DNA of 36,422 nt from a bacterium (lineage in GTDB: Bacteria; Sysuimicrobiota; Sysuimicrobiia; Sysuimicrobiales; Humicultoraceae): positions 1 to 36,422 of the forward strand of contig JBOGSE010000219.1 of the NCBI GenBank assembly GCA_050694895.1, given 5' to 3'. The position numbers and the translations under genes were made by a program. The notes beneath the pieces are model-generated. The model saw nothing but the letters and a program-made list of their open reading frames with translations, was not told the DNA's origin and did not search any database. Below are positions 10,869 through 26,698 of this stretch, in pieces. How positions within the stretch are numbered: the first letter of the stretch is position 1; each line of letters begins with the position of its first letter.

Positions 10869-11296
10869 CCCTGCGCGTAAATCTCTACGACCGCCGTTCC
10901 TTCGCTAACCAACTGACTGTCCTGCTTGACGGCCCAGATGTCCAAATCCACCGTGGTCTCCCCAGCCCGCCGGGTCGGGGTGGCGCGAATCCGCCCTTCG
11001 CACCGGATCAAGTCACCCACGCTCACTGGTGCGGTATGCCGAACGGCAAATCGCTTCAAGCGCCCATCGTCTCCCAGCCAGTCGGTGATCATTCTTGCGA
11101 TCAACGCGGTGCGAAAGTGTCCGCTTTGAATACAATCCATGAGGTGAAGGTGGTCACGCGCATAGGTCCGATCATAGTGGATGCGCAGCCAGTTCTCTTG
11201 ATACGCTGCCCACCGCACGAAGTCGGTCAGCCTGAAAGGTCCGACATGGAGGGCCGGTAGCGTCGTGCCCGGCTCCAGCACGAGCTCTGTCGTCAT
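10865..11296 (-). CDS. MaoC-like hot-dog fold protein (R-hydratase family) with a deviant hydratase-2 motif
   Basis: 143 aa. FVRWAAYQENWLRIHYDRTYA aligns by eye to the hydratase-2 motif, with His kept but Asn at the Asp position. C-terminal hot-dog strands GDLIRCEGRI...VDLDIWAVKQDSQLVSEGTAVV. ATGA overlap with the downstream ligase gene. Confidence 0.75.
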   Translation of the reverse strand: MTTELVLEPGTTLPALHVGPFRLTDFVRWAAYQENWLRIHYDRTYARDHLHLMDCIQSGHFRTALIARMITDWLGDDGRLKRFAVRHTAPVSVGDLIRCEGRIRATPTRRAGETTVDLDIWAVKQDSQLVSEGTAVVEIYAQG

Positions 11297-11299
11297 CTT

Positions 11300-12493
11300 T
11301 CAGCCGCGCGCGGCGCCCGTGGCCTCTCGCCGCGCCTGCGTCACGACCCCTTGCGCTTCCAGCGCGGCGATCTCGGCCGGCTCGAGGCCGATCTCACTGA
11401 GCACCGCCCCGGTGTGCTCGCCGCATCGCGGAGCCCGGCCCATCCCTTCGCCCAGCGGCGTCCGCAAATGGGGCATGTCGCCTTCGCCGCCGAGATGCCG
11501 AAAGAATCCGCGCGTCCGCAGGTGCCTGTCGCTCAACAGATCAAGCATGTCGTGCACGGGAGCCACGGGGACGCGCCGGGCCTGCGCGACGCGAGAGATC
11601 TCCACCTTGGAGAATGGCGCGGCCCACTCCGCCAGCACGCGAAAGATCTCGTCCTGCCTGCGCATCCTCGCGCTTTCGCTGGCCAACTCCTCGCCGCGCA
11701 GTCGCTTGTCGCCGACTGTGTCGACCAGCGCGCCCCATATCCCCTGTGCGCTCGCCGAGACAACGACATGGCCGTCGCGGCACGGCAGCGCGCCCGCCAC
11801 CGCGATGTGCGCGTGCCGGCTTCCCGCTCTCTTGACCACCCGTCCCCCGACTGAGGCTTCCAGGAGCCCCTGCTGCATGACGGACAGGAGCGCGTCATGC
11901 GCGCTCACCCGCACGAGCCGACCGCGGCCTGTCTTGCGGGCTGAGGCCAACCCGAGGAAGCCGGCCAGCGCGGCATACGTCGCAACGACCGCATTGGACA
12001 ACCCCCCGCCGATGAGCATGGGGGGCCCGCCGGGATCTCCCGTGATCGACATCAACCCGCTCAGCGCGCATCGGACGATCTCCGTGCTCTTGAACCCGCC
12101 GTCAGCGTCGGGCTCAAACCCCCTGACAGCCACCCACGTCAGACGTGGATTGGCATCGCAAGCCCGCGCATACGTCGCTTCGACTCCCTCAATGACTGGC
12201 TCGACGCCATCGATGACGAGGTCGACGCCGGCACACAGACGGGCGAGGATCTCGCGGCCCTCGTTCCGGCGCAGGTCGACGGCCACGCTGCGCTTTCCCG
12301 CATTGAAGTACTCGTGAATGACATCCTGAGGGTCCTCGGCCGTCGCAGGGTCGACGGTCACGGCGAGGTCGACCGAGCCCGCCGATTCCACCCGGATCAC
12401 GTCGGCCCCAAGGTCGGCGAGCAGCCGAGTGGCATAGAGCATCGACGGATCGGTCAAATCCAGCACCCGTGGTCGCATTGCGTCACAGCTCAT
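11300..12493 (-). CDS. Family III (CaiB/BaiF/Frc-type) CoA-transferase paralogue with Asn at the catalytic Asp position
   Basis: 397 aa. N-terminus RVLDLTDPSMLYATRLLADLGADVIRVES. The region that aligns to the active-site Asp of the neighbouring paralogue (SNSWADFVAGLHGAL) reads GGGLSNAVVATYAAL. Confidence 0.85.
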   Translation of the reverse strand: MSCDAMRPRVLDLTDPSMLYATRLLADLGADVIRVESAGSVDLAVTVDPATAEDPQDVIHEYFNAGKRSVAVDLRRNEGREILARLCAGVDLVIDGVEPVIEGVEATYARACDANPRLTWVAVRGFEPDADGGFKSTEIVRCALSGLMSITGDPGGPPMLIGGGLSNAVVATYAALAGFLGLASARKTGRGRLVRVSAHDALLSVMQQGLLEASVGGRVVKRAGSRHAHIAVAGALPCRDGHVVVSASAQGIWGALVDTVGDKRLRGEELASESARMRRQDEIFRVLAEWAAPFSKVEISRVAQARRVPVAPVHDMLDLLSDRHLRTRGFFRHLGGEGDMPHLRTPLGEGMGRAPRCGEHTGAVLSEIGLEPAEIAALEAQGVVTQARREATGAARG

Positions 12494-13026
12494 GGAGGAT
12501 CGGACGACGCCAGCGTGCGCGCGGTGACCTGACGGCTGACCGCCACGAGTTCTCCGTCTTGATCAACGTACGTCCGCTCCTCCGTGATGAAAACGGCGGG
12601 GCCCTCTGCCGTGCCCCTGGCGGTGATGTCGAGTATCTTGAACCGAACCGTAAGCCGGTCGCCGATGCGAATCGGCCTCATCCACTCGATGTCCGTCCCC
12701 GCATTGAGGCGGGCGACCTCGCGCGTCACGGTAATCGTGCCCGCCAGTCCCGCCAGCGAGGGAAACGCCCTCTCGCCGCTCTCGTCGACGCTATCGTGAC
12801 TCGGGGCGGGACGCACGACATCCAAGATCATCGCCGGCGGCGCGAGGGTACCGACGCGTCCGGCGTTATCGGCGAAATCGGCCGCCCCCCACAGCGGGTT
12901 GCAATCTCCCGTCGCGTTCATGTAGCGTCTGACATCGCTCCATTCGATGGCGCCAGGGGTCTCTACGGGTTCGCTCTCGCGCCCAATCCACGCGCGGAGC
13001 TCCGCGGGGAGTTCCATCTCGACCAC
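12490..13026 (-). CDS. MaoC N-terminal-type hot-dog protein (probable partner subunit of 10865..11296)
   Basis: 178 aa. YMNATGDCNPLWGAADFA is a near-complete hydratase-2 motif with Asp kept and His replaced by Trp. Hot-dog strands IRIGDRLTVRFKILDI...FITEERTYVDQDGELVAV. ATGA overlap with the downstream CoA-transferase. Confidence 0.7.
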   Translation of the reverse strand: MVEMELPAELRAWIGRESEPVETPGAIEWSDVRRYMNATGDCNPLWGAADFADNAGRVGTLAPPAMILDVVRPAPSHDSVDESGERAFPSLAGLAGTITVTREVARLNAGTDIEWMRPIRIGDRLTVRFKILDITARGTAEGPAVFITEERTYVDQDGELVAVSRQVTARTLASSDPP

Positions 13027-13033
13027 CTCGTCG

Positions 13034-14242
13034 CTACGCGAGCACGCCTTCGTCGTGCAGCCGGGCGAGCTCCGCGTCGCTCATCCCCAGCAGATCGTGG
13101 AGGACCTCGCGCGTGTGTTCGCCGAGCCGCGGGCCGGCACGGTCGACACGGGCGCCGGCGGCGTCAAATCGAATCGGCGCAGGGAATACCGGCATCTCGC
13201 CGATCACCGGATGGTGGACAGACCGCCGTCCGGGGGAGAATCGCGGGAGGTCGTCGAGGACCTCACCGGTAGTGCGGACCGCGGTCGCTGGAATCCCCGC
13301 CCGCTGGAGCGTTTCCTCCGCCTGACGGGCGGGCCGACGCCGAGTCCAGGCCTCGATGCTGCGGTCGATCTCTTCGGCGTGCGCCAGCCGGGCCTGAAGC
13401 GAATCGAAGCGGGGATCCGAGAGAACATCATCACCTAAGAGGCCTACAAGTGACCGCCACTCGGCGGCGTCTCCCACGCTCAACACGCACCAGGCGTCCT
13501 CGCCATCGCATCGGTAACACCCTTGCGGCGCGCGCGTCATCGACCGATTGCCCGCGCGCCCCACCGCCCGCCCGGCGCGCTGAGATGCCATCACCAGATG
13601 CCCAAGCGGCAGCACATTCGCCTCATACTGGCTCAGGTCAATCCAGCACCCCTGCCCATGCACCTCGCGCCGGCACAGCGCCGCCGCGACGACGAGGGCC
13701 CCGTGGAGACCGGCGACAAAATCGGCCCAGGAGTTCGACACGGCGACGGGAGGATCACCGGGGCTGCCGGTTGTGAGCATCAGGCCCGAGAGGGCCTGAA
13801 TGATGATGTTGAAGCTCACCCAATCCGCGTGCGGGCCGTGAGCGCCCAACCCGGACATGCTCACATAGATCAGTCGCCGGTTGCGCTCCAGCACCCGGTC
13901 CGGGCCCAGGCCCAGTCGCTCCATGACCCCAACGCTGAAGTTCTCGGTCAGCACGTCGCTGCGCTCCGCAAGCGCCAGCGCGATCTCGATACCTTCAGGA
14001 TGCTTGAGGTTGATGGCCACGGAGCGCTTGTTGCGATTCAGGCTCGCGAAGATGGCGCTTCCCTCGAGGTCCTGGGGGCCACCCGGCCGAAACGGGCCCA
14101 GCCGGCGCGCCTGATCCGGCGCCATGCCGCTTTCCACCTTTACGACGTCCGCGCCCAAGTCTGCCAGAAGACTCGTCGCAAAGGGCCCCGTCACGACGTG
14201 ACCAAAGTCGAGAATGCGCACCCCAGAAAGTGGAAGGCTCAT
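13034..14242 (-). CDS. Family III CoA-transferase (catalytic Asp present)
   Basis: 402 aa. MSLPLSGVRILDFGHVVTGPFATSLLADLGADVVKVES and the active-site region VSNSWADFVAGLHGALVVAAAL (D...G.H, as in Frc-type enzymes). Confidence 0.9.
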   Translation of the reverse strand: MSLPLSGVRILDFGHVVTGPFATSLLADLGADVVKVESGMAPDQARRLGPFRPGGPQDLEGSAIFASLNRNKRSVAINLKHPEGIEIALALAERSDVLTENFSVGVMERLGLGPDRVLERNRRLIYVSMSGLGAHGPHADWVSFNIIIQALSGLMLTTGSPGDPPVAVSNSWADFVAGLHGALVVAAALCRREVHGQGCWIDLSQYEANVLPLGHLVMASQRAGRAVGRAGNRSMTRAPQGCYRCDGEDAWCVLSVGDAAEWRSLVGLLGDDVLSDPRFDSLQARLAHAEEIDRSIEAWTRRRPARQAEETLQRAGIPATAVRTTGEVLDDLPRFSPGRRSVHHPVIGEMPVFPAPIRFDAAGARVDRAGPRLGEHTREVLHDLLGMSDAELARLHDEGVLA

Positions 14243-14279: not shown

Positions 14280-15158
14280 CTACAGATACAGGGTGCCCAC
14301 CCGCACCGAGCCCACCAGCCGTCCCATCTGTCCAGCTGCTACCCGGAGCCAGACTCCCTGCCGCTCACCGATGAAGAAATCCCCCACATGGAGAAGGAGC
14401 CAGGCGTACTGGCGCGCCGCCCGTCCGAGGTTTCGGGGCATCCCGTATCGCCGAAACTTCTTAAAGAGTATGGGATGTACAATGCCATAACGAAAATGCT
14501 GACGCCAGACCTCCTCCAACCGCTCGCGCCGGCGTTTCAGTACAATAGCAGCGGGCTCGACATGCAGGTCGAATCCCGCGAGCTGCACTCTCCAGCAAAA
14601 GTCCACATCCTCGGTCGGCAATTTCTCATCAAACCCCGCAACACGCTCCAACGCCGTCCGGGAGACGCTCAGGTTCGCCGTAAGGCCATAGGGTAGAAAC
14701 GCGAAGAAATCGTGCCCGCTCTTCTCTCTCCCCCCGCTGCCTGTCACGTGGCCCTTCGTGGAGGGGGACGCTTTCTCTGGATGCATGACTCCCAAGAACT
14801 GAATCTCGCCCGCCACGAGATGATGACGTTCGAGCGCGGCCGCCATCGCACCAAGCCAGCCCGGTTGCACGACGTCGTCCTGATCGCAGAAGAGGAATGC
14901 ATCCCCCGCCGCCACCGTAGCCGCGATGTTGTAGGCGGCGCCGGGGCCGCGACGGGCTGAGGCATCGATCACACGGAGATGAGGCATCTTGTCTTTGAAG
15001 GCGCGAGCGATCTCAAGTGTACGATCGCTGGAGCCGTTGTCCGCCACGATCAGTTCCCAGGAGCCGTCGTATGTCTGTCCGGCGAGCGCCTCGAGCTGCT
15101 CGCCGATCGTCTCTTCCCCATTCCAGGTGGCTACGATGACGGACAGGGTGCGGCCCAT
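14280..15158 (-). CDS. Glycosyltransferase family 2
   Basis: The ORF extends to 15494 over the 3' end of the upstream aminotransferase gene. ATG at 15158 gives MGRTLSVIVATWNGEETIGEQLEALAGQTYDGSWELIVADNGSSDRT, and the DxD-type motif FCDQDDV follows. Confidence 0.85.
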   Translation of the reverse strand: MGRTLSVIVATWNGEETIGEQLEALAGQTYDGSWELIVADNGSSDRTLEIARAFKDKMPHLRVIDASARRGPGAAYNIAATVAAGDAFLFCDQDDVVQPGWLGAMAAALERHHLVAGEIQFLGVMHPEKASPSTKGHVTGSGGREKSGHDFFAFLPYGLTANLSVSRTALERVAGFDEKLPTEDVDFCWRVQLAGFDLHVEPAAIVLKRRRERLEEVWRQHFRYGIVHPILFKKFRRYGMPRNLGRAARQYAWLLLHVGDFFIGERQGVWLRVAAGQMGRLVGSVRVGTLYL

Positions 15159-15178
15159 CGCGCTGTCAGGGTTCTGGC

Positions 15179-16327
15179 TCAATGGCCCACCGGCAGCCCC
15201 GGCCCCTGGCCGGCATGGGCCGCGGAGGAAAACGCCAATACGACCTCGACCACTCGCGCGACCTGAGAGTCTGTCAGATGCGGACCTAGCGGGAGGCTCA
15301 GGGCCTGGGTGTGGATCTCCTCGGCGATCGGGAAGCCTCCGGCGGGCACCTCGAGCCATCGGTAGGCCTCTTGCAGGTGCGGCGGGATCGGGTAATGGAC
15401 CAAGGCCTGGGTGCCGCACTTCGCCAGGTGCTCGCGCAAGGCATCCCGGCGTTGGCTTCGCACCACAAACAGATGCCAACACGGCTCCGCCCATTCCGGG
15501 ACGAAGGGCAAGACAATCCCCGCGGTCCGTAGGTCCTCCAAGTAGGTTGCGGCGACGCGCCGGCGCCGGGCATTCCAGATATCAAGCCAACGCAACTTGA
15601 CGCGCAAAATAGCCGCCTGCATCTCATCCAAGCGGCTGTTGTATCCACAGACCTCGCTGACGTACTTCCGCGACGATCCATAGTTGCGAAGGAGGGCGAC
15701 GCGATGCGCAAGATGCGCATCGTTCGTGGTGACCGCGCCGGCGTCGCCAAAGGCCCCGAGGTTTTTGGTCGGATAGAAGCTCCACCCTGCGGCGTGTCCC
15801 AGGGCGCCGGCCCGGCGGGCGTGGTAGCGGGCTCCGTGTGCCTGCGCGGCGTCCTCAAGCACCCAGAGGTCGTGACGTCGGGCGATGTCCATAATCGGAT
15901 CCATGTCCGCTGACTGCCCATAGAGATGCACTGGGACAATCGCTTTCGTTCGCGGCGTGATCGCGTCTTCCAGCCGCTCGGGATCAAGGTTATAGGTCCG
16001 AGAATCCGGTTCTACCGGCACGATACCCGCGCCCGTCTGGCTGACCGCCAGCCACGTCGCGATGTACGTGTTGCTCGGGACGACCACCTCGTCGCCCGCG
16101 CCAACCCCCATGGCGCAAAGGGACAGATGCAGCGCCTCTAAGCCGTTGCCCACCGCGACGCAGTATTGAGTTCCGACATAGGCGGCGAACTCTCGCTCGA
16201 ACGCCTCCACCTCTTGACCGAGGATGTACCACCCGCTCGCGAGCACCCGGGCCACGGCTTCGTCGATCTCGGCCTTGAGCTCCCGATAGGTGACCCCGAC
16301 ATCGAGAAAGGGAACGTTACTGTCCAT
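15179..16327 (-). CDS. DegT-family dTDP-3-keto-6-deoxyhexose 3-aminotransferase (FdtB/QdtB-like)
   Basis: The start is placed at the internal Met ([37 protein letters not shown]), which matches the usual N-terminus of this family. PLP-lysine region [16 protein letters not shown]. It lies directly downstream of an FdtA-like isomerase gene. Confidence 0.85.
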
Positions 16328-16733
16328 GTTGCTTGGCCGCCTCAAGGAACGCCTCGTAGTCACGGTGATAGTCGGATTCGTCATAGAGGTCGCTGGCAAG
16401 CACCATATACACCGTCCCCTGCTCGAAATCGCCTTCGGCAGCCCATATCATCGGGGGGATGTACAACCCAAGCCAGGGCCGGTCGAGCCTGATCCCCCGC
16501 CTCTGATGACCATCATCCAGGGCCACCTCCAGGCCCCCAGCCAAACAGACGATGACCTGTTGAAGCGTCTTGTGAGCATGGGCTCCCCGAGTTCCTCCGC
16601 GGGGAACGTCATAGACGTAGAAGACCCTGCGAATCTGAAACGGAACGTGTCGAGTCTCTTCAACAAATGTGAGACTTCCCCGCGAGTCGAAGACCTTAGG
16701 GAATTCAAGAAGACGGCATCGCTCGAGCCCCAT
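16317..16733 (-). CDS. WxcM/FdtA/QdtA-like cupin: dTDP-4-keto-6-deoxyglucose 3,4-ketoisomerase
   Basis: 138 aa from the internal Met: [26 protein letters not shown]...[19 protein letters not shown]...[15 protein letters not shown]. The HAHK histidine pair and overall length match FdtA-type isomerases. An alternative start is at 16790. Confidence 0.8.
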
Positions 16734-16796
16734 GACGTGCCCTTTACCAGGACCAGCTCGCCGGCGCCCACGCGGCGTGGGCGTGCACATAGCGTC

Positions 16797-17816
16797 TCAC
16801 GAACCTCTCAGCGCCCCTTCATACCACGCCGCGTAGTACCGCAGGTACTCCCCCGACTTGACCGCCTCCCACCAGGCGCGATGACGTTGATACCACTCAA
16901 CGGTCCTGGCCAACCCTTCTGCGAGTGAAATTTTCGGCGTCCATCCCAGCGCCTGCCTCGCCCTGCCTGCATCGAGCGCATACCGCCGGTCGTGGGCCGG
17001 GCGATCGCGTGTGAACTGCAAGAGACTCGGAGAAGCGCCCACAAGCCTGAGAATCGTCTCCGCCACGGCGATGTTAGGCAGCACGCCTCCAGCGGCGAGA
17101 TTGTAGACGCCCTCCAGTCGTGCGCAGTCCACCGCGGCCAGAAGCGCGGCGCAGTGGTCCTCGACGAACAACCAGTCCCGTTCCTGGCGGCCGTCGCCGT
17201 AGACGGGAATGGGCTTGCGCTCCATGGCGTTGGTGATCGCCAGCGGGATGAGCTTTTCTGGGAACTGGAACGGGCCATAGTTGTTTGTGCACCGGGTAAT
17301 GACGACCGGCACACCATGGGTCTTGGCGTATGCCTGGCACAGCAGGTCGGCGGCGGCTTTACTTGCCGCGTAGGGACTCGTTGGATGAAGGGGCGCGTCC
17401 TCGGCAAACGCTACGGCCGGCGGGGTCGGCCCATACACCTCATCGGTGCTCACCTGAATGAACCGTTGCACCCCGAACTGCAGCGCCGCATCCAGCAGGA
17501 CCCGCACACCTCCGACGTTGGTGTGGATGAACGGGCCAGCGTCCATGATGCTGCGGTCGACGTGAGACTCTGCGGCGAAATTCGCGACGACGTCGACGCC
17601 ATCTCGAAACACGCCGTGCACCGTCGGTGGATCCCCGATGTCACCCTTCACAAACCTAAAGTGGGGGTGCGTGGCCACGTCGCGAAGGTTTTCGAGGTTG
17701 CCGGCATAGGTCAGCTTGTCCAACACCGTAACCTGCCACTCTGGCCGGCATCGCACTACATGTCGGGCAAAGTGACTCCCGATGAATCCCGACCCGCCCG
17801 TAATGAGAATCTTCAT
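16797..17816 (-). CDS. rfbB: dTDP-glucose 4,6-dehydratase (RmlB/RfbB)
   Basis: 339 aa. MKILITGGSGFIGSHF, SPYAASKAAADLL (Y-x3-K), and a C-terminal region typical of RmlB. Confidence 0.95.
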   Translation of the reverse strand: MKILITGGSGFIGSHFARHVVRCRPEWQVTVLDKLTYAGNLENLRDVATHPHFRFVKGDIGDPPTVHGVFRDGVDVVANFAAESHVDRSIMDAGPFIHTNVGGVRVLLDAALQFGVQRFIQVSTDEVYGPTPPAVAFAEDAPLHPTSPYAASKAAADLLCQAYAKTHGVPVVITRCTNNYGPFQFPEKLIPLAITNAMERKPIPVYGDGRQERDWLFVEDHCAALLAAVDCARLEGVYNLAAGGVLPNIAVAETILRLVGASPSLLQFTRDRPAHDRRYALDAGRARQALGWTPKISLAEGLARTVEWYQRHRAWWEAVKSGEYLRYYAAWYEGALRGS

Positions 17817-18274
17817 CGGTGGCTGAGGCTCCAGTCGTAGGGGACACCGGGGTCGTCGTGAGGGAGCCGATACTCGTCCGGTGCTAGATAGTCATAGATC
17901 CGGGTGGGGATGTTGACGAGGATCGCCTCGCGCGGCCCCTCAGCCGCGACGCCGTGGTACACGAGCGGTGGAACGATGACCAACAGTGGATTGAGGACAC
18001 CGGTATGAAACTCGTTGATGACGCCCTTCGTGGGACTCTCATTCCGGGGATCGTACAGCACGATTCTTGCCATGCCTCGGATGCAGACGAAGTAGTCCCA
18101 CTGATCCCTGTGATAGTGCCAGGCTTTGATCACCCCGGGATAGCACGCTGTCAGATAGACCTGCCCAAAGGCGCGGAACTCCGGCCAGTCGCTCCGCAGC
18201 ATTTCCATGAGAAATCCGCGATCGTCGGGCAGGACCTTCAACGACCTGACGGTCACACCGTTGATCAGGTTCAC
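17813..18274 (-). CDS. Short (SpsL-type) dTDP-4-dehydrorhamnose 3,5-epimerase-like cupin
   Basis: 153 aa. LKVLPDDRGFLMEMLRSDW...PGVIKAWHYHRDQWDYFVCIRGMARIVLYD...VPPLVYHG. RmlC-family cupin of the short form. ATGA overlap with rfbB. Confidence 0.75.
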   Translation of the reverse strand: MNLINGVTVRSLKVLPDDRGFLMEMLRSDWPEFRAFGQVYLTACYPGVIKAWHYHRDQWDYFVCIRGMARIVLYDPRNESPTKGVINEFHTGVLNPLLVIVPPLVYHGVAAEGPREAILVNIPTRIYDYLAPDEYRLPHDDPGVPYDWSLSHR

Positions 18275-18286
18275 CGCACTCTCCCG

Positions 18287-19354
18287 CTAGATTGTGATTT
18301 CTGAATGGTCGCTGATGAACACTCGCAGGGCCTTCGGGCCATTCTCTGCCCGCCGGATGGTCACGAAGCGTCCCAGCACGCTGTCTTCCAACCGATCGAT
18401 GCCTACAAGCTGGCAGTGTGCCAGGACGACGGAGTGCTGCACCGCCACTTGCGCCACCACCGTATCGTGGCCGATCGCGGTATACGGCCCCACGAATGCA
18501 TCACGGATCTGGCACCGTTCGCCGACAACTACCGGGCCGCGAATGACGCTGCGCTCGACGGTGGTGCCTGGACCGATCTCCACCCGGCCCGTGACGACCG
18601 AGGCCTCGTCCACCGTGCCCTGGATCTTCCGTGTCGCAATCTCATCCAGAACGGCTCGGTTGGCCTCCAGCAGATCATCCTTCTTCCCCGTATCAAGCCA
18701 CCAGCCGTCGAGTTTGACCGTTTCCACCTTGGCTCCACTACTGGACAGTTCCTGAATGGCGTCGGTGATCTCTAGCTCACCCCGTCGCGATGGACGGATT
18801 CGGTCGATGGCCGCGTGAACGCTCGGCCGGAAGAAGTACACTCCCACTAGCGCGAGGTTGCTCGGCGGATGCTGTGGCTTTTCGATCAGGGCGGTCATCC
18901 TCCCGTCGGCATCCACGACGGCCACGCCGAACTGGCGCGGGTCGGCGACCTCCTTCAGGAGGATAAGGGCTTCGGCATCGCTTTCCAGGAACCGGCTGTG
19001 GAGGTGCTGCACCCCGCCCTGAATCAGGTTATCCCCCAGAAACATCAGGAACGGACTGTCCCCAAGGAATGGGCGGGCCGTACGGACCGCGTGCGCTAGT
19101 CCGCCGGGCACGTCCTGTGGAATGTAACTGATCTTCACACCCCATTGCTCGCCGTTGCCCACGGAGTTGCGGATGGCTTCCCCCGTCTCCGGATCAATGA
19201 TGATGCCGACATCTCGGATACCGGCCTGCGCGACCTGGTCCAGGACAAAATGCACGATGGGTCGGTTGGCCACCGGAATCAGCTGCTTGGCGCCCGTGTG
19301 GGTCAGCGGCCTCAGCCGCGTGCCCCGTCCCCCGCACAGCACCAGGCCCTTCAT
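18287..19354 (-). CDS. rmlA: Glucose-1-phosphate thymidylyltransferase, long form with a C-terminal left-handed beta-helix
   Basis: The start is placed at [33 protein letters not shown] (355 aa). The alternative ATG is at 19381. The ORF-track extension to 19546 (GTG) is Arg-rich and unlikely to be coding. Confidence 0.85.
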
Positions 19355-19398
19355 CTGGTTCCCGTTGGTCAGATCCGTCATGTTCCTACACGACCGAC

Positions 19399-20301
19399 TT
19401 ATTCCGTCTGGGGCGGAGCCTCTAATGCCGTACGGGAGCCTTTGCCCGCTCCTCCTTCGGATCTGCCCTCGGTAACCGCCTCGCGTTTGACGTATACGTA
19501 CCACTCGGTCTGGACCAGTGGGAGCCGCGCGACGAGGCGATCCCACAGGCGCTCATGCGGCAGGATAAAAGGGCTCGTGGGTGTGTTATTGAAGTTGTTC
19601 GTGCAATAGAGACGGCCCCCTGACTTCAGGACTGCGACCAGCCTGGGCAGGAGAGCTTCCAACTCCGTCGCGGCAAGGCTGCCGAAGACATCGAAGGCAA
19701 CAACGCAATCGAACTGCTCACCCCTGGGTATGTCAGAGATGAAGCGGATCGGGATGTTCCTCCGTCGAGCTCGCCACTCGGCTACCTTCCAGACGGGCGA
19801 ATCGGCGATATCGCAGTACCAGACCTCGTTTCCTTGGGCTGCCAGCTGCAGAGCCTCGGTCCCGATGCCTCCCCCGAAGGAGAGAACGGTACCATCCCGC
19901 TCGTCATTCAGGAGGGCAAGGTACCCATGGTAGGTAGGCGTCATATGCCAGCGGGCCAGGTCGTAGACGTACTCCGAGCAGTGCCGGTGGAACTCGTATA
20001 TCTGCTCCGGGGTCTGCGGGTTTTCTCGTCGCCAGCGCGCCGCTACCAGTTCGTGACCCCTGGCGAGGTTCAGTGCAACCTCGGACCGTGGCAATCCCAG
20101 GTATGCCTCCAGCTCCTCCAGCACCGAAGGACGTCCAGATATCATGCGCTCGTGTGCCGCTCGGTCCATGACCCGCGCCACCCTTAGCGGCTCCCTGTTT
20201 CCCCTCAGGAGGTACACGGCAGTCGCCACGGGATGCCTGAGGGCGAACCGTGCTCTTTGCAAAATCCTCATCATCCGCGCACCAGAGAGCGGAAGGCTCA
20301 T
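19399..20301 (-). CDS. Class I SAM-dependent methyltransferase
   Basis: 300 aa. Motif [14 protein letters not shown], acidic post-I residue in VWYCDIAD, and [17 protein letters not shown] overlap with the upstream DUF35 gene. The start could instead be Met10/11. Confidence 0.75.
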
Positions 20302-20666
20302 GCCGGCTCAAACAGCGGAAGCGTGTACTCCTTGGTGATGCGCCGCAGCACGACGCGAACCGGCATCCCGATCCGCACCGCCTCAGGGGGACAGTGCACA
20401 ATGTTGCTGACCATCACGGGACCTTCGTCGAGCTCGATGATGGCATAGACGTACGGCACGGAGAACGCCGGGTCGTGCGGTACCCGTTGAATCGTGTAGG
20501 TCAGAACTTTTCCTTGGCCGCTGGCACGGACCCACTTGAGATCTTGCAGATACGGCTTGTTCGCATGCTCGCGGCATCCCGCCAGCGGCCATCGCCAGCC
20601 GAGACACTGCTCGCACCGCAACAGTAAGAATTCTCCCCGCGCCAACCCCTCCCAGAACGGCACCAT
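20298..20666 (-). CDS. DUF35 protein (rubredoxin-like Zn ribbon plus OB fold; partner of thiolase-fold enzymes)
   Basis: 122 aa. FWEGLARGEFLLLRCEQCLGWRWPLAGCREH (Cys-x2-Cys...Cys-x2-His), then the OB-fold part GKVLTYTIQRV...YVYAIIELDEGPVMVSNIV...IGMPVRVV. It lies immediately downstream of a thiolase-fold gene, the canonical pairing. Confidence 0.7.
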   Translation of the reverse strand: MVPFWEGLARGEFLLLRCEQCLGWRWPLAGCREHANKPYLQDLKWVRASGQGKVLTYTIQRVPHDPAFSVPYVYAIIELDEGPVMVSNIVHCPPEAVRIGMPVRVVLRRITKEYTLPLFEPA

Positions 20667-20700: not shown

Positions 20701-21903
20701 TCAGTGATACGGGTGGCTCCTCAGGACGACGGTGGAGTGGATCGAGCACATCTGCCCCGACAGGACCTCTGCACCGTGACCGGACACCACGGCGACCTCC
20801 GCCCCCTCCACCTGTCGGCTCTTCCCCTCGCCGCGCAGCTGCGTCACGGCCTCGGCGAGGCCCGTCAAATTGCCGAGATGATGCGAGGAGAGCAGGCCCC
20901 CGCCGGTGTTGGTGGGGATCTGACCCCCGGGGGCGGTCCGCATCTCTGCCACGAACGCGCCGCCCTCGCCCTTCTCACACCAGCCGTAGTCCTCCACCTG
21001 GATCACGACCTCCCCGGTGAAGCAATCGTAGAGCTGCGCCACATCGATATCCGACAGCTGAACGCCGGCCTGCCTGAACGCATTGTCTCGCGCCGACCGC
21101 ACCGCCAGCGTGGTGTAATTTGATTTCTTCCACCAGAGATCGCTCATCTGCTCGCCGAACCCAATACCTGCGACATGGACCGGTGGCTTCCGTAAGTCTC
21201 GCGCGCGGTCCGCTGTCGTCACCACAAAGGCCACTCCGCCGTCACTCTGCAGGCAGATGTCAAAGAGACGATATGGCCACACGACCACCGGAGAGTTCTG
21301 GTGATCTTCTAATGTCAGGGACTTGCGATGCATGTACGCCGAGGGGTTGAGGTTCGCCCAGCGGCGCTGGGCAACGGCGACCGCGCCCAACTGGGCGCTC
21401 GTCGTCCCGTATTCATACATATGACGACTGGCGAGCAGTCCATGATACGTGACGGCGTTCCCTCCGAACAGTTGCGCCATCATATTCGTCTTGGGCGCAA
21501 ACGCCTGGCCGGCTCTCCCAGACGCGGCCTTAGCGGTCTGGCTGCGGCTCCAGTCGTCTCGTGCCCCGGCGCAGAGAACGTATTCGGCGACCCCATGTTC
21601 TAAGAGACTGCTTGCGATGATCAGGGCGTGGGCAACATACTCCCCGCCACGCCCGACATTCTCCATGTACACGTTGACCGGCAGGTTCAACACGCGCGCA
21701 AACGAGTCATGGTGCCTCGCGCGGACGCCGCCCCCCGTATCGCTGAGCAGCTGGATAGCCGCGCCGATGCGCTCGGCCTCGAGCCGGGCGTCCTGGAGGG
21801 CCAGCCGCGCCGCCTCAACCTCAAGCATCAGGACCGAACGGCCGGGGAGGTGGCCCACCTCTGTGACGCCGAGGCCGACGATGGCGCAGGTATCGCTCCT
21901 CAC
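20701..21903 (-). CDS. SCP2/Ltp-type thiolase-fold protein lacking the nucleophilic cysteine (candidate aldolase/condensing subunit)
   Basis: The ORF extends to 22260 across the upstream gene. I place the start at GTG 21903..21901, which is preceded by GGAGG with 8-nt spacing (seen in sequence). Family landmarks are AIVGLG, DICLQSDGGVAFVV, LYDCFTGEV and NTGGGLLSSHHLGNLTGLAEAVTQLRGE. The acyl-Cys position reads NVGRGGEY. Confidence 0.75.
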   Translation of the reverse strand: MRSDTCAIVGLGVTEVGHLPGRSVLMLEVEAARLALQDARLEAERIGAAIQLLSDTGGGVRARHHDSFARVLNLPVNVYMENVGRGGEYVAHALIIASSLLEHGVAEYVLCAGARDDWSRSQTAKAASGRAGQAFAPKTNMMAQLFGGNAVTYHGLLASRHMYEYGTTSAQLGAVAVAQRRWANLNPSAYMHRKSLTLEDHQNSPVVVWPYRLFDICLQSDGGVAFVVTTADRARDLRKPPVHVAGIGFGEQMSDLWWKKSNYTTLAVRSARDNAFRQAGVQLSDIDVAQLYDCFTGEVVIQVEDYGWCEKGEGGAFVAEMRTAPGGQIPTNTGGGLLSSHHLGNLTGLAEAVTQLRGEGKSRQVEGAEVAVVSGHGAEVLSGQMCSIHSTVVLRSHPYH

Positions 21904-21922
21904 CCGTCGCGCCTCCGCCCGC

Positions 21923-22891
21923 TCACTCTCTGAGGAAGGAGTCCGGCGGCATCGGCCCCCAGAGGTTCGCCGAGGCCGGCCGGCCCTTGACAGGGTCCCA
22001 CCGACCTGGTCGATACGTCGACTCGTCTTCGATCCGGTTCGGCTCGCCCAAGACCTCCCAACGGATCCCCCAGGGGTCGAGAAAATATACGAACAAGCCG
22101 TGACTGGGCCCATGCCGCCCCGGTCCAAACTCGATGCGGATGTCGTTGGCCACGAAATGGTCCCCGAGACGGCGGATCTCGTCCCACGACGCGATCTCAA
22201 ACGCGATGTGATGCACCCCGGGAGTCGTGGACCGGACGATGGCCACCGTGGCATGGTCACAGTTGCAGCGCAGCCAATAGAACGTCTCGCTGATCTGATC
22301 AGAAAGCCGAAAGTCCATGATGTCCTGCCACCACCGCGATGCCCGCGCCGGCTCCGGACTCTTCACATTGATATGCGCGAGCTTCACGAGGTCGAAGGGC
22401 ACGCGGCCGGCGGGACGGGGCACAGGCGGCAGGGGAACGGTGAGCTCCACGGCAAAGCCATCCGGGTCACGCAGGCGGACCGCCGGACCGTGCATGCGCT
22501 CGAAGTCCTGGGGACCTTGGATATCCAGCCCCCGTGACCGCAGGAGCGCAACCGCGCGAACAAGCGCTGCATCATCGACCACTGCCAGGCCGACGTGGTC
22601 GACTCCCGCCGGTTCTCCTGGAGACACGATGACTTCGTGATGGGCAACCGTCGCAGCCCCCCGGGGCAGGCTGCTGAGCCGGATGGCCCCACTGACCCCG
22701 TCCCGCCCCGTTTCCCCGAGTCCCAGGGCCCGCCGGTAGAAGGAGGCCGCGGCCTCCGGGTCGGGCACCCGAAGGCTCACGTGATCAAGATGCGTGACCG
22801 GGAGCAGTCCGCTCACCAGCGCGTGTCCCTCACCCTCCCCCGATGGCCGAGGGACCACGTTGATCACAGCACCGGTTTCGTCACGAGCCAT
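21923..22891 (-). CDS. Two-domain type I extradiol ring-cleavage dioxygenase (catechol 2,3-dioxygenase-like, VOC superfamily)
   Basis: 322 aa from ATG 22891..22889 (TGATG junction with the upstream stop). C-terminal domain: LAHINV, CDHATVAI, VHHIAFE and GPGRHGPSHGLFVYFLDPWGIRWEV. The last fits the extradiol signature as I recall it (G-x-H-x7-V-Y-x2-D-P-x-G-x3-E). Confidence 0.8.
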   Translation of the reverse strand: MARDETGAVINVVPRPSGEGEGHALVSGLLPVTHLDHVSLRVPDPEAAASFYRRALGLGETGRDGVSGAIRLSSLPRGAATVAHHEVIVSPGEPAGVDHVGLAVVDDAALVRAVALLRSRGLDIQGPQDFERMHGPAVRLRDPDGFAVELTVPLPPVPRPAGRVPFDLVKLAHINVKSPEPARASRWWQDIMDFRLSDQISETFYWLRCNCDHATVAIVRSTTPGVHHIAFEIASWDEIRRLGDHFVANDIRIEFGPGRHGPSHGLFVYFLDPWGIRWEVLGEPNRIEDESTYRPGRWDPVKGRPASANLWGPMPPDSFLRE

Positions 22892-24519
22892 CACGGTTCG
22901 CGCGCGACCTTTGCGGCCCTTCCCGAATCGAAGGCCAGTGTGTGAAATGGCAGCAGCTTGCCATGAGCCGTCGGAACGGGGTCCCGACGAATGACCTTGA
23001 TCGTCTGTGCCAGCCGCCACATGGGCGGTATCGTGGTGCGTGGCTGTATCTGTAACCTCAGTTCCTCGACAAACCTCGCCAGAACGCGCTCCTCGTCGAC
23101 CGGTCCCACAGCGGGGCTGACGACAAGGCACAACCTCGTCAGGTGCTCCTCATCCTCCATCTCGAGCAGCTGATAATCGAGGCTCCGGCCCCCGAATTCA
23201 CGGGGGAGCACTTCCTCGATGACCCGCACGCTGTCGGTCCCGAGCACGGTCACTCCCTCGCCGGTGAGCTTGGAGAAGCTCATGATGCCCGAGAGGTGCG
23301 TGTGCAACCCGAGGGTATCCCAGACACATTCACATCGGCGAACGGTGATGTCACCGAAGTCATCACTCTCGACGTTGAGCATGATTTTCGGGCTGGAAGG
23401 GAGCAGGGTCGTCAGGATCAAGGCATCCACAGCTCTGCCATCCGGCAAGGGACGCTTCTCGGACAGGAGCGCAAAACTGTCTGCCTGGAAATGCATATCA
23501 TCCACTGCCGTCGCCTGCCCGCATGCACACCCCACCGCGCCAGCTTCCGTGATGGAATATCGTGCCCCCACGCGCGCGCCCACGCGGACGATGTCCGCGG
23601 ACTTCCCCGGCGTCAGTGGCTCCCCACCGACGAGGAAGGCAACCCGTTCTAGATCGACTCCCCGGTGAGCGGCAAGCCCGGCCAGCCGGGTGGCGGTACT
23701 CGGACTCGTCAACGCCGCACACCCGCCGTATCGCGCGCGGGCCTCCAGGACGGCATCCAGTACGACGTCGGCATCGGCGAACGACGCGTGCTCAGGATAG
23801 GCCACGCGCACTCCGCGCGCCATGCCGATGATCTGTCCGACGCGAAACATCACGCGGTGCCGACGCGACACCGATTCTGGTGATGGCTTCGTGATGGAGA
23901 ACCAGCGCAGCAATGGTCGTCCCATATGGGCCAGCGCGAGCCACCACATCAGGCCGCCACCATGACTGACGGCAGGCATCCAGATGATGGCGGGCCATGA
24001 ACCGGCCCCCAGCGCCTCAAGGGCCAGGTACCACGCCGGCGCTCGCTGGTCGGCGACGTAGTCGAACGACGCTGGCACCCGCGACCCCCGGCTCCGTGTG
24101 CCGCCTGTTCGCGCGACAAACGATGGCACGGTCCTCGGGTTGTCCAGATCGCCCTCGGTACACTCGAACCGAAGACCATCGCGCTGAATGGGTCTCTGCC
24201 CCTTGAACTCCTCGTGGCTGAGGTAGACGCCCGTGGCCCGCAGCGCCTCGAGCGCCGACTCCAGCCCACGGCGTCGCACGGCATCAACCAAGGCGTCATA
24301 TGACCACCCTGCCCACTGCAACAGCCGGAGATATGGGCTCGCGGGATTCTGCCAGATCGTCTCCCGGGCCGTTCGCAAAAATAGCTCGTCCCGGACCGCC
24401 AGTCGATCGCGGATCTGCGCCTTGGCCTGCTCAAGCGTGAGGGGCCGGAAAATGTGCCGGACCAGCCCTCGGGCCACACGCACATGCGCGCCGAGATCGG
24501 CCGGGGCCGGAAGGCTCAT
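22891..24519 (-). CDS. PaaK/CapK-like adenylate-forming enzyme, copy 2 of 2
   Basis: 542 aa, collinear with 9243..10868. TGGTRSRGSRV, GEPLTPG, YSITEAGAVGCAC, DDMHFQAD, LTTLLPSSPKIMLNVESDDFGD, FSKLTGEGVTVLG, and the C-terminal HGKLLPF. Confidence 0.7.
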   Translation of the reverse strand: MSLPAPADLGAHVRVARGLVRHIFRPLTLEQAKAQIRDRLAVRDELFLRTARETIWQNPASPYLRLLQWAGWSYDALVDAVRRRGLESALEALRATGVYLSHEEFKGQRPIQRDGLRFECTEGDLDNPRTVPSFVARTGGTRSRGSRVPASFDYVADQRAPAWYLALEALGAGSWPAIIWMPAVSHGGGLMWWLALAHMGRPLLRWFSITKPSPESVSRRHRVMFRVGQIIGMARGVRVAYPEHASFADADVVLDAVLEARARYGGCAALTSPSTATRLAGLAAHRGVDLERVAFLVGGEPLTPGKSADIVRVGARVGARYSITEAGAVGCACGQATAVDDMHFQADSFALLSEKRPLPDGRAVDALILTTLLPSSPKIMLNVESDDFGDITVRRCECVWDTLGLHTHLSGIMSFSKLTGEGVTVLGTDSVRVIEEVLPREFGGRSLDYQLLEMEDEEHLTRLCLVVSPAVGPVDEERVLARFVEELRLQIQPRTTIPPMWRLAQTIKVIRRDPVPTAHGKLLPFHTLAFDSGRAAKVAREP

Positions 24520-25382
24520 GCGGTATCTCCGTCGAGCCGGTCGTACCCGAAGCCGTCGCGCGCGGTCAACAAACGCAGTCGCGCCCTGAAGAGCCAGAAC
24601 CCGTCACTCTGAATCACGGGGTACCGCCACATCCTGGAGAGATCGAGCGCACGGTAGGGGTTCTTGGCGGGCCCCCCAAGTGCGACCGTGTCATACCGTG
24701 AAGCCACCAGGGCGTGCGTCGCAGGCGCCCACCGTCCCCACGGGTACGCGAAATGCTTTGGGCGAAATCCCAGCCGCGCCTCGATGAGCCGATCGCACTC
24801 ATCCAGCTCGCGCCTCGCCTCTTCCAGGGATAACCGGGACAGGTCGGCGTGCGTATGCGTGTGCGCCCCGATGGTCATCAGTCCCGAGCCGCCCATCTCG
24901 GCAAGCTGATCCCAGGTCAGGGGCCGGGGTCTTTCCGCCGGGTCCATGGCGCGGTAGGCGCCAAAATCGAAGGGCCGTCGCGCCTCGAGATACATGGCAG
25001 GAACATAGATCGTTGCGGGGAGGCTATAGCGGTGGAGAATCGGATACGCCAGATGGTATGTCCCCTGGTGGCCGTCATCAAAGGTGATGGCCACGACATC
25101 CCGCTGCGCCGGCGGCCCGGACCCGTTCATGGAGATCCTGACCACGTCGTCGAGGGATACGACCCGAACGTGCCGACGGAGATAGTCCATCTGGCGCTCG
25201 AAGAGTCCGACGGCGACATCGATCTCGCTGCGGGTGCTGCCGCCGACGCGATGATAGAGGAGCACCACCACTCCGGGTCTCTGCTCGCGGCGCAGGGCAT
25301 GATATGGAAGCGCCCCCCACCGGAACAGGCTACGAGCAAGCCGGGCCTCACCTTTCAACCAGTCGCGAACGCGGTGCGTCAC
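24516..25382 (-). CDS. Polysaccharide deacetylase (CE4 / NodB homology domain)
   Basis: NodB motifs ITFDDGHQGTY and GAHTHTHADL. The ORF extends to 25586 over the upstream gene; GTG 25382..25380 gives a GTGA overlap with the upstream stop. The start position is only moderately certain. Confidence 0.8.
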   Translation of the reverse strand: MTHRVRDWLKGEARLARSLFRWGALPYHALRREQRPGVVVLLYHRVGGSTRSEIDVAVGLFERQMDYLRRHVRVVSLDDVVRISMNGSGPPAQRDVVAITFDDGHQGTYHLAYPILHRYSLPATIYVPAMYLEARRPFDFGAYRAMDPAERPRPLTWDQLAEMGGSGLMTIGAHTHTHADLSRLSLEEARRELDECDRLIEARLGFRPKHFAYPWGRWAPATHALVASRYDTVALGGPAKNPYRALDLSRMWRYPVIQSDGFWLFRARLRLLTARDGFGYDRLDGDTA

Positions 25383-26698
25383 GCCCGGGGTCCGGACCTC
25401 GCCGGCAGATAGGCCAGCCACATGAGTATGAAGGGGAGCAACTGCGCCCGTTGCCGCGCGATGATCGCGAAATTCGAAATAGCGGAAAAGAAGAACGCAA
25501 AGAGCAAGACGTAGGTGACCGACATCAAGAGGAAGGTATCGCGTCGCGCGCCGACGATTGCGGCAATCACGCTCCGCCGACGCCACGCGACTAGCGCGAC
25601 CAGCAACACACCCTCGGCCGCAGAGATTTGCGCGAACAGGTTACCTGCCTCCCACGGGTATGGGCGAAAGAAGACTGTCGCAATCCCGTCGGCAAGCGCC
25701 ACCGGGTTGTTGGGCATCCCCCGCTGGATTATCGACCTGCCGCGCGCGGTGGTCTCCTGACGCGCTTCGATGTAGCTCAAGACGCCCTCCCCCGAAAGCT
25801 CCTCGAGCTGGATAAAGTCCGCGGATGTTTGCACCACGACAAAAGCCAGGACGGCGACGATCGCGGTCGCCATCCCCTTGACTACCGGCGTCATCAAGCC
25901 GGCGCGGATTGGCCGCAGTAAATATCCGGTCGCCAGAGCCACGCCGGCCATCGCCGCGACGTGCGGCCGGATGAAGAGGACTCCCGCCAGGCCGCCGGCG
26001 GCCATCAGCCAGCCTCTGAAATCAGGGCGCCGCATGACGATCGCCGCGCCATAGGTCATCAGGCCGAGAGAGAAGCAGACCAGTGCATCTTTCCCCAAAC
26101 TGCTGGTCCAGAGCAGCATCGAAGGATAGAGCAAGATCAGCAACGCGTACAGCCGGCGATTGCCGCCGGGAAACGCGACGGTGAACGCTTTGTAGAAGAA
26201 CAGCATCCCCATCAGTCCCAGCCACGCCCAGAATACAAATGCACCAACAAGGGTTGGGCCGACAAATGCGTAATAAATCCCGGTCAACAGCTGGACCAGC
26301 TGCGTGCTATAGTACTTGTCCATCTGGGGCAGACCGCTCCTCAGGATCGCATCGGCCAGGCGCTCACCCGATTCGTGGTACTGCAAGGCATCGGCAACCC
26401 CGCCGTACTGGACGAGGACGAACCAGAGGCGAAAGACCACGGCTCCGAACTTGAGGATGAGACTCGCCACCAGCACACGAAACAGCCACGCACCATGCGG
26501 ATCGTCGCGAATGGCCAGGCGAAAGATGACGAGGGTGACGAGGGTGACGATGGCGATGACGCCAGCGGCACGAACCCCCTCAGCATCCTGGGCGGCCACG
26601 GCGATGCCAACGACGGCGGCCATCGTCACGAAGAGGAGCGCCGTACCTAGAACCCACGGAGAGTCTGACCGCGTCCGCACGACGCGATGACCGATCAT
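25379..26698 (-). CDS. Polytopic integral membrane protein, unassigned (Wzy / O-antigen-ligase-like or GT-C-like)
   Basis: About 439 aa from ATG 26698..26696 (TGATG junction). Many long hydrophobic segments throughout, with a larger polar loop near ...ADFIQLEELSGEGVLSYIEARQETTARGRSIIQRG.... No soluble-enzyme motif recognised. Confidence 0.6.
   Translation of the reverse strand: MIGHRVVRTRSDSPWVLGTALLFVTMAAVVGIAVAAQDAEGVRAAGVIAIVTLVTLVIFRLAIRDDPHGAWLFRVLVASLILKFGAVVFRLWFVLVQYGGVADALQYHESGERLADAILRSGLPQMDKYYSTQLVQLLTGIYYAFVGPTLVGAFVFWAWLGLMGMLFFYKAFTVAFPGGNRRLYALLILLYPSMLLWTSSLGKDALVCFSLGLMTYGAAIVMRRPDFRGWLMAAGGLAGVLFIRPHVAAMAGVALATGYLLRPIRAGLMTPVVKGMATAIVAVLAFVVVQTSADFIQLEELSGEGVLSYIEARQETTARGRSIIQRGMPNNPVALADGIATVFFRPYPWEAGNLFAQISAAEGVLLVALVAWRRRSVIAAIVGARRDTFLLMSVTYVLLFAFFFSAISNFAIIARQRAQLLPFILMWLAYLPARSGPRA

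Follow-up and report, generated by a model that had tools for sequence, protein, structure and literature searches.

A VOC protein of catechol extradiol dioxygenase descent that lacks the acid-base histidine and is encoded with a CoA-ester cassette in polysaccharide loci

The described enzymes closest to the protein considered here are the type I extradiol dioxygenases XylE (PDB 1mpy), LapB (3hpv) and HPCD/MndD (1q0c, 1f1r). A gene on the minus strand of contig JBOGSE010000219.1, a 36.4-kb contig of a metagenome-assembled genome (MAG) with 64.8% G+C that was analysed over its whole length and is called the window below, encodes a protein of the VOC family that shares with these enzymes the fold (TM about 0.8), the His-His-Glu metal triad of the C-terminal domain, the second-sphere His/Tyr and a PS00082-type signature. 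Unlike the aromatic meta-pathway enzymes, to which it is ~25% identical, this VOC protein carries alanine at the position of H199/H200, and its gene lies among genes for polysaccharide and CoA-ester enzymes. According to PMC10760822, the transfer of a proton to O2 depends critically on HPCD His200. The nearest mechanistic analogues are the engineered HPCD variants H200N, H200Q, H200E and H200C (PDB 4z6l-4z6w, 5bwg), which are likewise without the acid-base histidine; in contrast to these laboratory mutants of a catabolic enzyme, the substitution found here arose in nature and has become fixed in a clade, together with the changes Thr175-to-Asn and Asn265-to-Ser.

The genes that follow the VOC gene have their closest described counterparts in the steroid and benzylsuccinate systems ChsH1-ChsH2-Ltp2, Shy-Sal and BbsEF/BbsAB. 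Like these, the cassette encodes a thiolase-fold protein without the catalytic cysteine but with a Y-D-C/H-F motif, a DUF35 protein, a MaoC hydratase made up of two subunits and a family III CoA-transferase that is heteromeric and most similar to BbsE/BbsF. Unlike these, it includes neither an acyl-CoA dehydrogenase nor a short-chain dehydrogenase/reductase (SDR), is situated in a glycan locus and has the VOC gene in first place, and a steroid or benzylsuccinate substrate is unlikely. A full-text search of the literature returned no paper that places a homologue of the extradiol dioxygenases in an O-antigen or exopolysaccharide locus, and none on this cassette.

The open reading frame (ORF) of 322 codons reported in a first-pass annotation of the window, made by eye, is present (21923..22891, minus strand) and contains two PF00903 VOC domains (Pfam); residue numbers follow this 322-aa ORF throughout. 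Its sequence matches in the PDB are to catechol 2,3-dioxygenases and HPCD, at 6e-22 to 1e-15. An AlphaFold2 (AF2) model of high predicted confidence (pLDDT 92.3) matched XylE, LapB and HPCD in Foldseek with query TM-scores (TMq) of 0.74-0.82, the best structural matches all being extradiol dioxygenases. The two domains and the structural matches bear out the earlier assignment to the type I two-domain extradiol dioxygenase fold family, in which two VOC domains in tandem are each built of paired beta-alpha-beta-beta-beta modules, and the protein descends from catechol extradiol dioxygenases. Membership of the glyoxalase I, FosA and methylmalonyl-CoA epimerase families was considered and rejected, as scores of 22-29 bits were obtained against NCBIfam cut-offs of 115-275; the two-domain architecture also sets the protein apart from these families. 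The curated cut-offs of the named dioxygenases were likewise out of reach, with 140 of 320 bits for TIGR03211, 124 of 321 for TIGR02295, 53 of 366 for TIGR03213 and 39 of 450 for HsaC.

To place the catalytic residues, 64 homologues were aligned and then re-aligned with XylE and BphC using MAFFT; the sequences used for the latter two agree with the established residue numbers of these enzymes. The motifs singled out in the first-pass annotation (LAHINV, VHHIAFE, GIRWEV, CDHATVAI and GRHGPSHGLFVYFLDPWGIRWE) each occur in the ORF, and the candidate 2-His-1-carboxylate ligands drawn from them, H173, H228 and E279, align with the XylE and BphC triads and are invariant in all 64 homologues. A regular expression for the PS00082-type signature, written in the form we take that pattern to have, matches residues 258-279, GRHGPSHGLFVYFLDPWGIRWE, as had been suspected. 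By alignment, then, the His-His-Glu metal site is intact and the His/Tyr pair for contact with the substrate hydroxyls is retained.

The second-sphere set of two histidines and a tyrosine fared less evenly: H260 and Y269 hold, but the histidine of CDHATVAI is H213, which lies one residue before the canonical acid-base histidine. The canonical position itself is occupied by Ala214. In the HMMER alignment to MndD (1f1r), His200 pairs with residue 214 and His214 with residue 228, without a gap between them, and the HMMER alignments to 3hpv and 3b59 agree, so that the assignment of Ala214 does not depend on the XylE and BphC sequences used. Both alignment methods contradict the description of the protein as catalytically intact with every element kept: as judged by alignment, the O2-activating acid-base histidine is lost. 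With one defining catalytic feature absent and the curated thresholds not reached, the protein is, on its sequence, not to be filed as a catechol 2,3-dioxygenase.

The loss is shared by a clade. Column 214 holds histidine in 40/64 homologues, all outside the clade, and alanine or threonine in 24/64, all of them clade members that form one monophyletic group in a neighbour-joining tree; serine is found there too, in metagenome loci of the clade. Residue 175 is asparagine in 24/24 members as against threonine in 16/16 of the sister clade, and residue 265 is serine as against asparagine. Consistent differences from this nearest histidine-keeping clade occur at positions 172, 175, 214, 265 and 281 only, near the metal/O2 side, and the other substrate-pocket columns are almost unchanged between the two, which argues for a similar chelating substrate of aromatic type. 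The ligands, H260, Y269, Arg259 and the GPGRHGP loop are invariant within a clade that has diverged to ~55% identity, arguing that the site is under selection.

The sister clade (P0019, P0023, P0041 and others; loci L005, L008 and L092) is 47-58% identical, of the same length and uncharacterised, and differs in keeping the sequence DHH (His214), Thr175 and Asn265. In all three of these loci, genes for Rieske ring-hydroxylating alpha and beta subunits and for cis-diol-type SDRs adjoin the VOC gene; the pairing of a Rieske oxygenase with an SDR is the classical catechol-producing context. In L004 a GntR gene is the sole neighbour. L008 and L092 share a recurring set consisting of Rieske alpha/beta, SDR, GntR, VOC, EthD/DUF4286-like, AA_synth (PF06684) and amidohydrolase genes, a neighbourhood reminiscent of a catabolic operon, so far uncharacterised, for aromatic amides or acids. 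A profile scan of 185k species representatives returned two close relatives only, both on short MAG contigs, the other matches being at most 37% identical.

The clade is as uniform in its gene neighbourhood as in its active site. The proteins of the window were searched by tblastn over 168 fetched loci, and the thiolase-fold gene was found directly downstream of the VOC gene in 11/11 loci with Asn175 and a small residue at 214 (window included), as against 0/87 loci of the "HH" type whose sequence extends for 1.5 kb or more downstream. By tblastn coordinates, 9-55 nt lie between this pair of genes in the 10 fetched loci, and by the gene calls of L007 they overlap by 4 nt. The order VOC, Thiolase_C_1, DUF35, CoA_transf_3, FAS1_DH hot-dog, CoA_transf_3, MaoC recurs in L001/L002, L003, L006 and L007, where the block is flanked by GT4, GNAT, Bac_transf, DegT and Polysacc_synt_2 genes; in these long contigs of the clade, a CE4 deacetylase gene and a GNAT gene also lie upstream of it. 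The position of a dioxygenase-like gene in a polysaccharide operon, linked to a thiolase-fold gene, had been remarked on as unusual, and this placement is kept in every related locus examined. The VOC clade is strictly linked to a hydratase/aldolase/CoA-transferase cassette inside glycan loci.

Within this cassette, the thiolase-fold protein has changed much less across the clade than the VOC protein, with identities of 72-86% as against 55-76%. Its closest PDB entries are 4u4e (7e-62) and Ltp2 (6ok1, 2e-54). The nucleophilic cysteine of a true thiolase (CaSG, 7yvy) aligns with glycine, and its QLYDCFT sequence aligns with Y294-D-H-F of Ltp2, Tyr344 of Ltp2 being histidine here. Sal has the sequence Y302-D-C304-Y; the numbered tyrosines of Ltp2 and Sal and Cys304 are aldolase catalytic residues (PMC12329534), and a YDCF motif like that of the window protein occurs in Sal and TbSLP. 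Because the cysteine is replaced by glycine and YDCF matches the catalytic motif of Ltp2 and Sal, the protein is more likely a (retro-)aldolase than a thiolase; with no cysteine nucleophile, a tyrosine in Y-D-(H/C)-(F/Y) and an adjacent DUF35 gene, it has the features of the Ltp2/Sal type. A role as a PhlACB-type acyltransferase was rejected, the catalytic cysteine being absent. The DUF35 gene directly follows the thiolase-fold gene in L001-L003, L006, L007 and L090, and DUF35 proteins usually partner thiolases or thiolase-fold aldolases.

The two family III CoA-transferases best match different subunits of benzylsuccinate CoA-transferase (9fn0_B and 9fn0_A), and since each matches its own subunit, the pair suggests a BbsEF-like heteromer, with a substituted succinate, or an acid resembling one, as the predicted substrate. 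Such a heteromer is unexpected inside a glycan locus. The two hot-dog proteins resemble MaoC/HadB hydratase subunits weakly. More distant thiolase-fold/DUF35 pairs have varied partners (a CoA-transferase pair, an AMP-ligase, or racemase and lignin-type genes); no VOC protein was found beside those examined, so that the combination of VOC and MaoC proteins is specific to the polysaccharide clade, and no substrate could be assigned from them. A 61%-identical pair in L171 (9001-11347) adjoins an Asp/Glu-racemase (arylmalonate-decarboxylase-like) gene, with LigXa/VanA-type Rieske oxygenases and glutathione S-transferases nearby, a context of lignin-fragment catabolism.

The explanation that we favour, with confidence that stands at about even, is that the VOC protein is a neofunctionalised metalloenzyme, probably still O2-using, in an uncharacterised acyl-tailoring cassette. 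We propose that a VOC metalloenzyme, in a 297-aa form, arose from genuine catechol extradiol dioxygenases and was recruited into a conserved cassette with a Cys-less thiolase-fold aldolase and its DUF35 partner, a BbsEF-like CoA-transferase pair and a two-subunit MaoC hydratase, within polysaccharide loci and beside CE4 deacetylases, GNAT acyltransferases and PaaK-like ligases. The protein would still bind Fe(II) or Mn(II), along with a vicinal-dioxygen substrate of catechol or enediol type that chelates the metal. Its reaction would be non-canonical, slower or differently proton-relayed and most likely O2-dependent, rather than the standard fast meta-cleavage. The acid or aldehyde product of the VOC protein, or its substrate, would be processed as a CoA thioester by the transferase, the hydratase and the aldolase, and the end product would be an unusual acyl or dicarboxylate group, put on amino sugars of the polymer by GNATs or PaaK-like ligases, possibly after CE4 deacetylation. 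It may be speculated that the CoA cycle is closed, with aldol addition of an aldehyde to succinyl-CoA, dehydration, and transfer of CoA back to succinate, which would explain the presence of transferases in place of a synthetase. A further proposal, possible but doubtful, is that the His200-less clade with its new reaction, together with the aldolase-DUF35, CoA-transferase and MaoC proteins, constitutes an undescribed CoA-cycling pathway for a new acyl decoration of amino sugars in the surface polysaccharides of Armatimonadota-like bacteria; its chemistry might convert an aldehyde and succinyl-CoA into an alkylidene- or aryl-succinate-type acid.

Three points weigh against the favoured explanation. 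Without His200 the canonical reaction is extremely slow, with a vanishingly small rate, according to PMC10760822, which cites Groce and Lipscomb (2005). No catechol-making gene (hydroxylase, Rieske oxygenase or chorismate enzyme) was found in the window, L001, L002, L006 or L007; among the clade loci checked, only L003 has an isochorismatase-family gene upstream. Finally, the contrast of 11/11 with 0/87 loci gives a Fisher p of 9e-15, in which independence is overstated, the loci being related.

The chief rival is that the VOC protein is a non-oxygenase metalloenzyme (an epimerase, isomerase, lactonase or lyase) whose substrate is an intermediate of the cassette, either a CoA thioester or a substituted succinate, with the His-His-Glu metal serving as a Lewis acid only. 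The residue lost is the one dedicated to O2 activation, the partner enzymes all work on CoA thioesters, with CoA-transferases that come nearest to benzylsuccinate CoA-transferase, and the absence of a catechol-forming gene from the loci fits as well. VOC enzymes of CoA esters exist, such as methylmalonyl-CoA epimerase, to which there is a weak NCBIfam match (1.3e-6), and a precedent is at hand in the itaconate clusters: PA0880 / Rdo1 likewise lies among CoA-transferase, MaoC hydratase and lyase genes, and its true role is not ring cleavage, the "ring-cleaving dioxygenase" PA0880 of the P. aeruginosa itaconate/dicarboxylate-CoA cluster being a 2-hydroxyparaconate lactonase (PMC9875883). PA0880 is, however, a 127-aa single-domain VOC protein that is no close relative of the clade and serves as precedent only. 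The clade, moreover, keeps the extradiol-specific His260 and Tyr269 and the whole signature without variation, its pocket columns are nearly those of the catechol-pathway sister clade, at 55-58% identity, and the epimerase, glyoxalase and FosA scores are far below cut-off. We consider a non-oxygenase role somewhat unlikely.

The reading of the first-pass annotation, a fully competent, canonical catechol meta-cleavage dioxygenase, would now require that His213 or Asn175 replace the missing histidine. His213 is conserved in 63/64 homologues, residues 209-215 are irregular (non-strand by DSSP in the AF2 model), so that His213 could reorient, and all other catalytic elements are intact; Asn175 lies at the position of HPCD Asn157, which we take to line the O2 pocket. 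Yet the sister clade conserves His213 just as strictly while keeping His214 beside it, so that His213 is no replacement that arose with the loss, and XylE and HPCD have alanine or valine at this position. The scores obtained against the catechol 2,3-dioxygenase (140 bits) and HpaD (124 bits) models, with cut-offs of 320 and 321, argue in the same direction, and neither a meta-pathway hydrolase or dehydrogenase nor a catechol-producing gene is present near the VOC gene. Canonical meta-cleavage is accordingly judged improbable. Least of all would we expect a catalytically dead scaffold or binding subunit associated with the aldolase/DUF35 complex, to which the loss of a key catalytic residue and the tight coupling to the thiolase-fold gene (the overlap in L007) might point, since the invariance of the ligands, His260, Tyr269, Arg259 and the GPGRHGP loop at ~55% identity argues for selection on the active site.

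The start of the VOC gene also differs from that first proposed. The NCBI product has 297 aa, virtually all of 431 database homologues have 287-302 aa, and the close homologues all begin M-(S/P)-(E/D)-R-L-P-(V/I)-T-H-L, which corresponds to codon 26 of the 322-codon ORF. In the closest of them, L001 (76% identical), the upstream frame holds a stop and is without a start codon from that stop to the ATG. Residues 1-25 of the AF2 model have pLDDT values of 48-68, and the sequence GGAGGGTGAGGG, at 22838..22827, precedes a GTG at 22816. Because the homologue starts, the NCBI call, the low pLDDT of residues 1-25 and the upstream GGAGGGTGAGGG all favour it, this GTG is likely the true start and the predicted protein has 297 aa, the ATG within TGATG being an unlikely start.

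This revision bears on the proposed translational coupling to the ligase gene upstream. The TGATG of the 1-nt overlap is present at 22893..22889, but its ATG finds no support as a start among the homologues, and in the 297-aa form 74 nt separate the ligase stop from the VOC start. Nor is the ligase neighbour conserved: directly upstream of the VOC gene lies a ligase gene in the window, a methyltransferase gene in L001, an isochorismatase-family gene in L003 and a CE4 deacetylase orthologue in L006, L007, L009 and L093. On the downstream side, the 19-nt spacer with its GGAGG (21916..21912) after the TGA stop (21925..21923) is as described, and the thiolase-fold gene starts at 21903 with GTG, not ATG. 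The isochorismatase-family hydrolase gene of L003 (137-856) overlaps the VOC start, in the place of the CE4 deacetylase, and this cluster also holds an inserted NMT1-type ABC importer; the two may be a hint of a precursor that is imported or comes from chorismate.

Table 1. Features of the window, with the active-site codons of the VOC gene and their counterparts in characterised enzymes (aa, amino acids; CDS, coding sequence)
Feature	Position	Strand	Remarks
VOC / extradiol-dioxygenase-like CDS, likeliest form	21923..22816	minus	297 aa, GTG start, TGA stop
N-terminal 25-codon extension from the ATG first proposed	22817..22891	minus	probably untranslated spacer; holds ribosome-binding site GGAGGGTGAGGG
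H173 codon	22373-22375	minus	XylE H153, BphC H146; invariant, 64/64 homologues
N175 codon	22367-22369	minus
H213 codon	22253-22255	minus	XylE A198, BphC H194
A214 codon	22250-22252	minus	XylE H199, BphC H195, HPCD H200 (acid-base His position)
H228 codon	22208-22210	minus	XylE H214, BphC H210; invariant, 64/64 homologues
H260 codon	22112-22114	minus	XylE H246, BphC H241, HPCD H248; invariant, 64/64 homologues
Y269 codon	22085-22087	minus	XylE Y255, BphC Y250, HPCD Y257; 57/64 homologues, 24/24 clade members
E279 codon	22055-22057	minus	XylE E265, BphC E260; invariant, 64/64 homologues
Spacer, VOC stop to thiolase-fold GTG start	21904..21922	minus	19 nt, GGAGG at 21912-21916
Thiolase-fold protein	20701..21903	minus	400 aa, YDCF motif; Pfam Thiolase_C_1
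DUF35 / OB_ChsH2_C protein	20298..20666	minus	122 aa
Sugar-nucleotide cassette	14280..20301	minus	between DUF35 and CoA-transferase a; this window only
Family III CoA-transferase a, BbsF-like	13034..14242	minus	CoA_transf_3; 9fn0_B 8e-71
Hot-dog protein (FAS1_DH_region)	12490..13026	minus	probably non-catalytic/partner subunit of MaoC hydratase
Family III CoA-transferase b, BbsE-like	11300..12493	minus	CoA_transf_3; 9fn0_A 9e-35
MaoC-like (R)-hydratase subunit	10865..11296	minus	143 aa
541-aa paralogue of the 542-aa protein	9243..10868	minus	63% identical to it; downstream of MaoC gene
542-aa protein ("ligase-2")	22891..24519	minus	PaaK-like adenylate-forming ligase fold
CE4 polysaccharide deacetylase	24516..25586	minus	longest-ORF coordinates
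456-aa ORF	25379-26749	minus	between GNAT and CE4 deacetylase
870-aa ORF	29999-32611	minus	two complete GT4 modules in tandem

The upstream gene and its paralogue beyond the MaoC gene belong to a family for which neither Pfam nor NCBIfam has a model and whose 146 homologues bear no annotation beyond "hypothetical protein", and by sequence the 542-aa protein gives a marginal match (E about 0.002) to 9s3l. A structure of the family predicted by AF2 from database homologues (pLDDT 88.9) matched PaaK1 (2y27) in Foldseek with an E-value of 3.8e-16 and a target TM-score (TMt) of 0.68, and also PaaK2, 2-hydroxyisobutyryl-CoA ligase and NatL2, so that calling the upstream gene a ligase was right at the level of the fold. 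The P-loop-like motif of the family is RTGGTRSxGxRV, as against the usual SSGTTGKP. The 456-aa ORF, which by implication had been taken for a first ligase, has no match in Pfam, NCBIfam or the PDB and is unrelated to the ligase family, and that label finds no support; a counterpart of 439 aa is present in L001/L002.

Nearly all genes of the window are carried on the minus strand and together form a polysaccharide locus of the ABC-transporter type, with UDP-glucose dehydrogenase, Wzm, Wzt, many GT4 and GT2 glycosyltransferases, a PglC-like initiating transferase, DegT aminotransferases, a Polysacc_synt_2 dehydratase, GNATs and two CE4 deacetylases. The 870-aa tandem GT4 protein has an 814-aa counterpart in L001/L002. 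The sugar-nucleotide cassette comprises methyltransferase, nucleotidyltransferase, cupin ketoisomerase, 4,6-dehydratase, DegT and GT2 genes and resembles the dTDP-3-amino-3,6-dideoxyhexose type without the usual LbH N-acetyltransferase; because that enzyme is absent, the amino sugar of the cassette may be the acceptor of the unusual acyl group. This insert of ~6 kb splits the CoA block, which speaks for cooperation between the CoA genes and the glycan genes.

Two annotations made by eye are corrected by these results: the position of the start codon, and the statement that the catalytic residues are intact. O2 activation in type I extradiol dioxygenases is seen as hinging on His200, and a conserved natural clade without it, in which the rest of the active site is kept, provides a ready-made test of that mechanism. 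The VOC clade could exemplify the repurposing of a catabolic ring-cleaving enzyme. The recurrence of a seven-gene CoA cassette in polysaccharide loci suggests an undescribed modification of glycans, and new uses outside catabolism for both thiolase-fold aldolases and CoA-transferases of the benzylsuccinate type.

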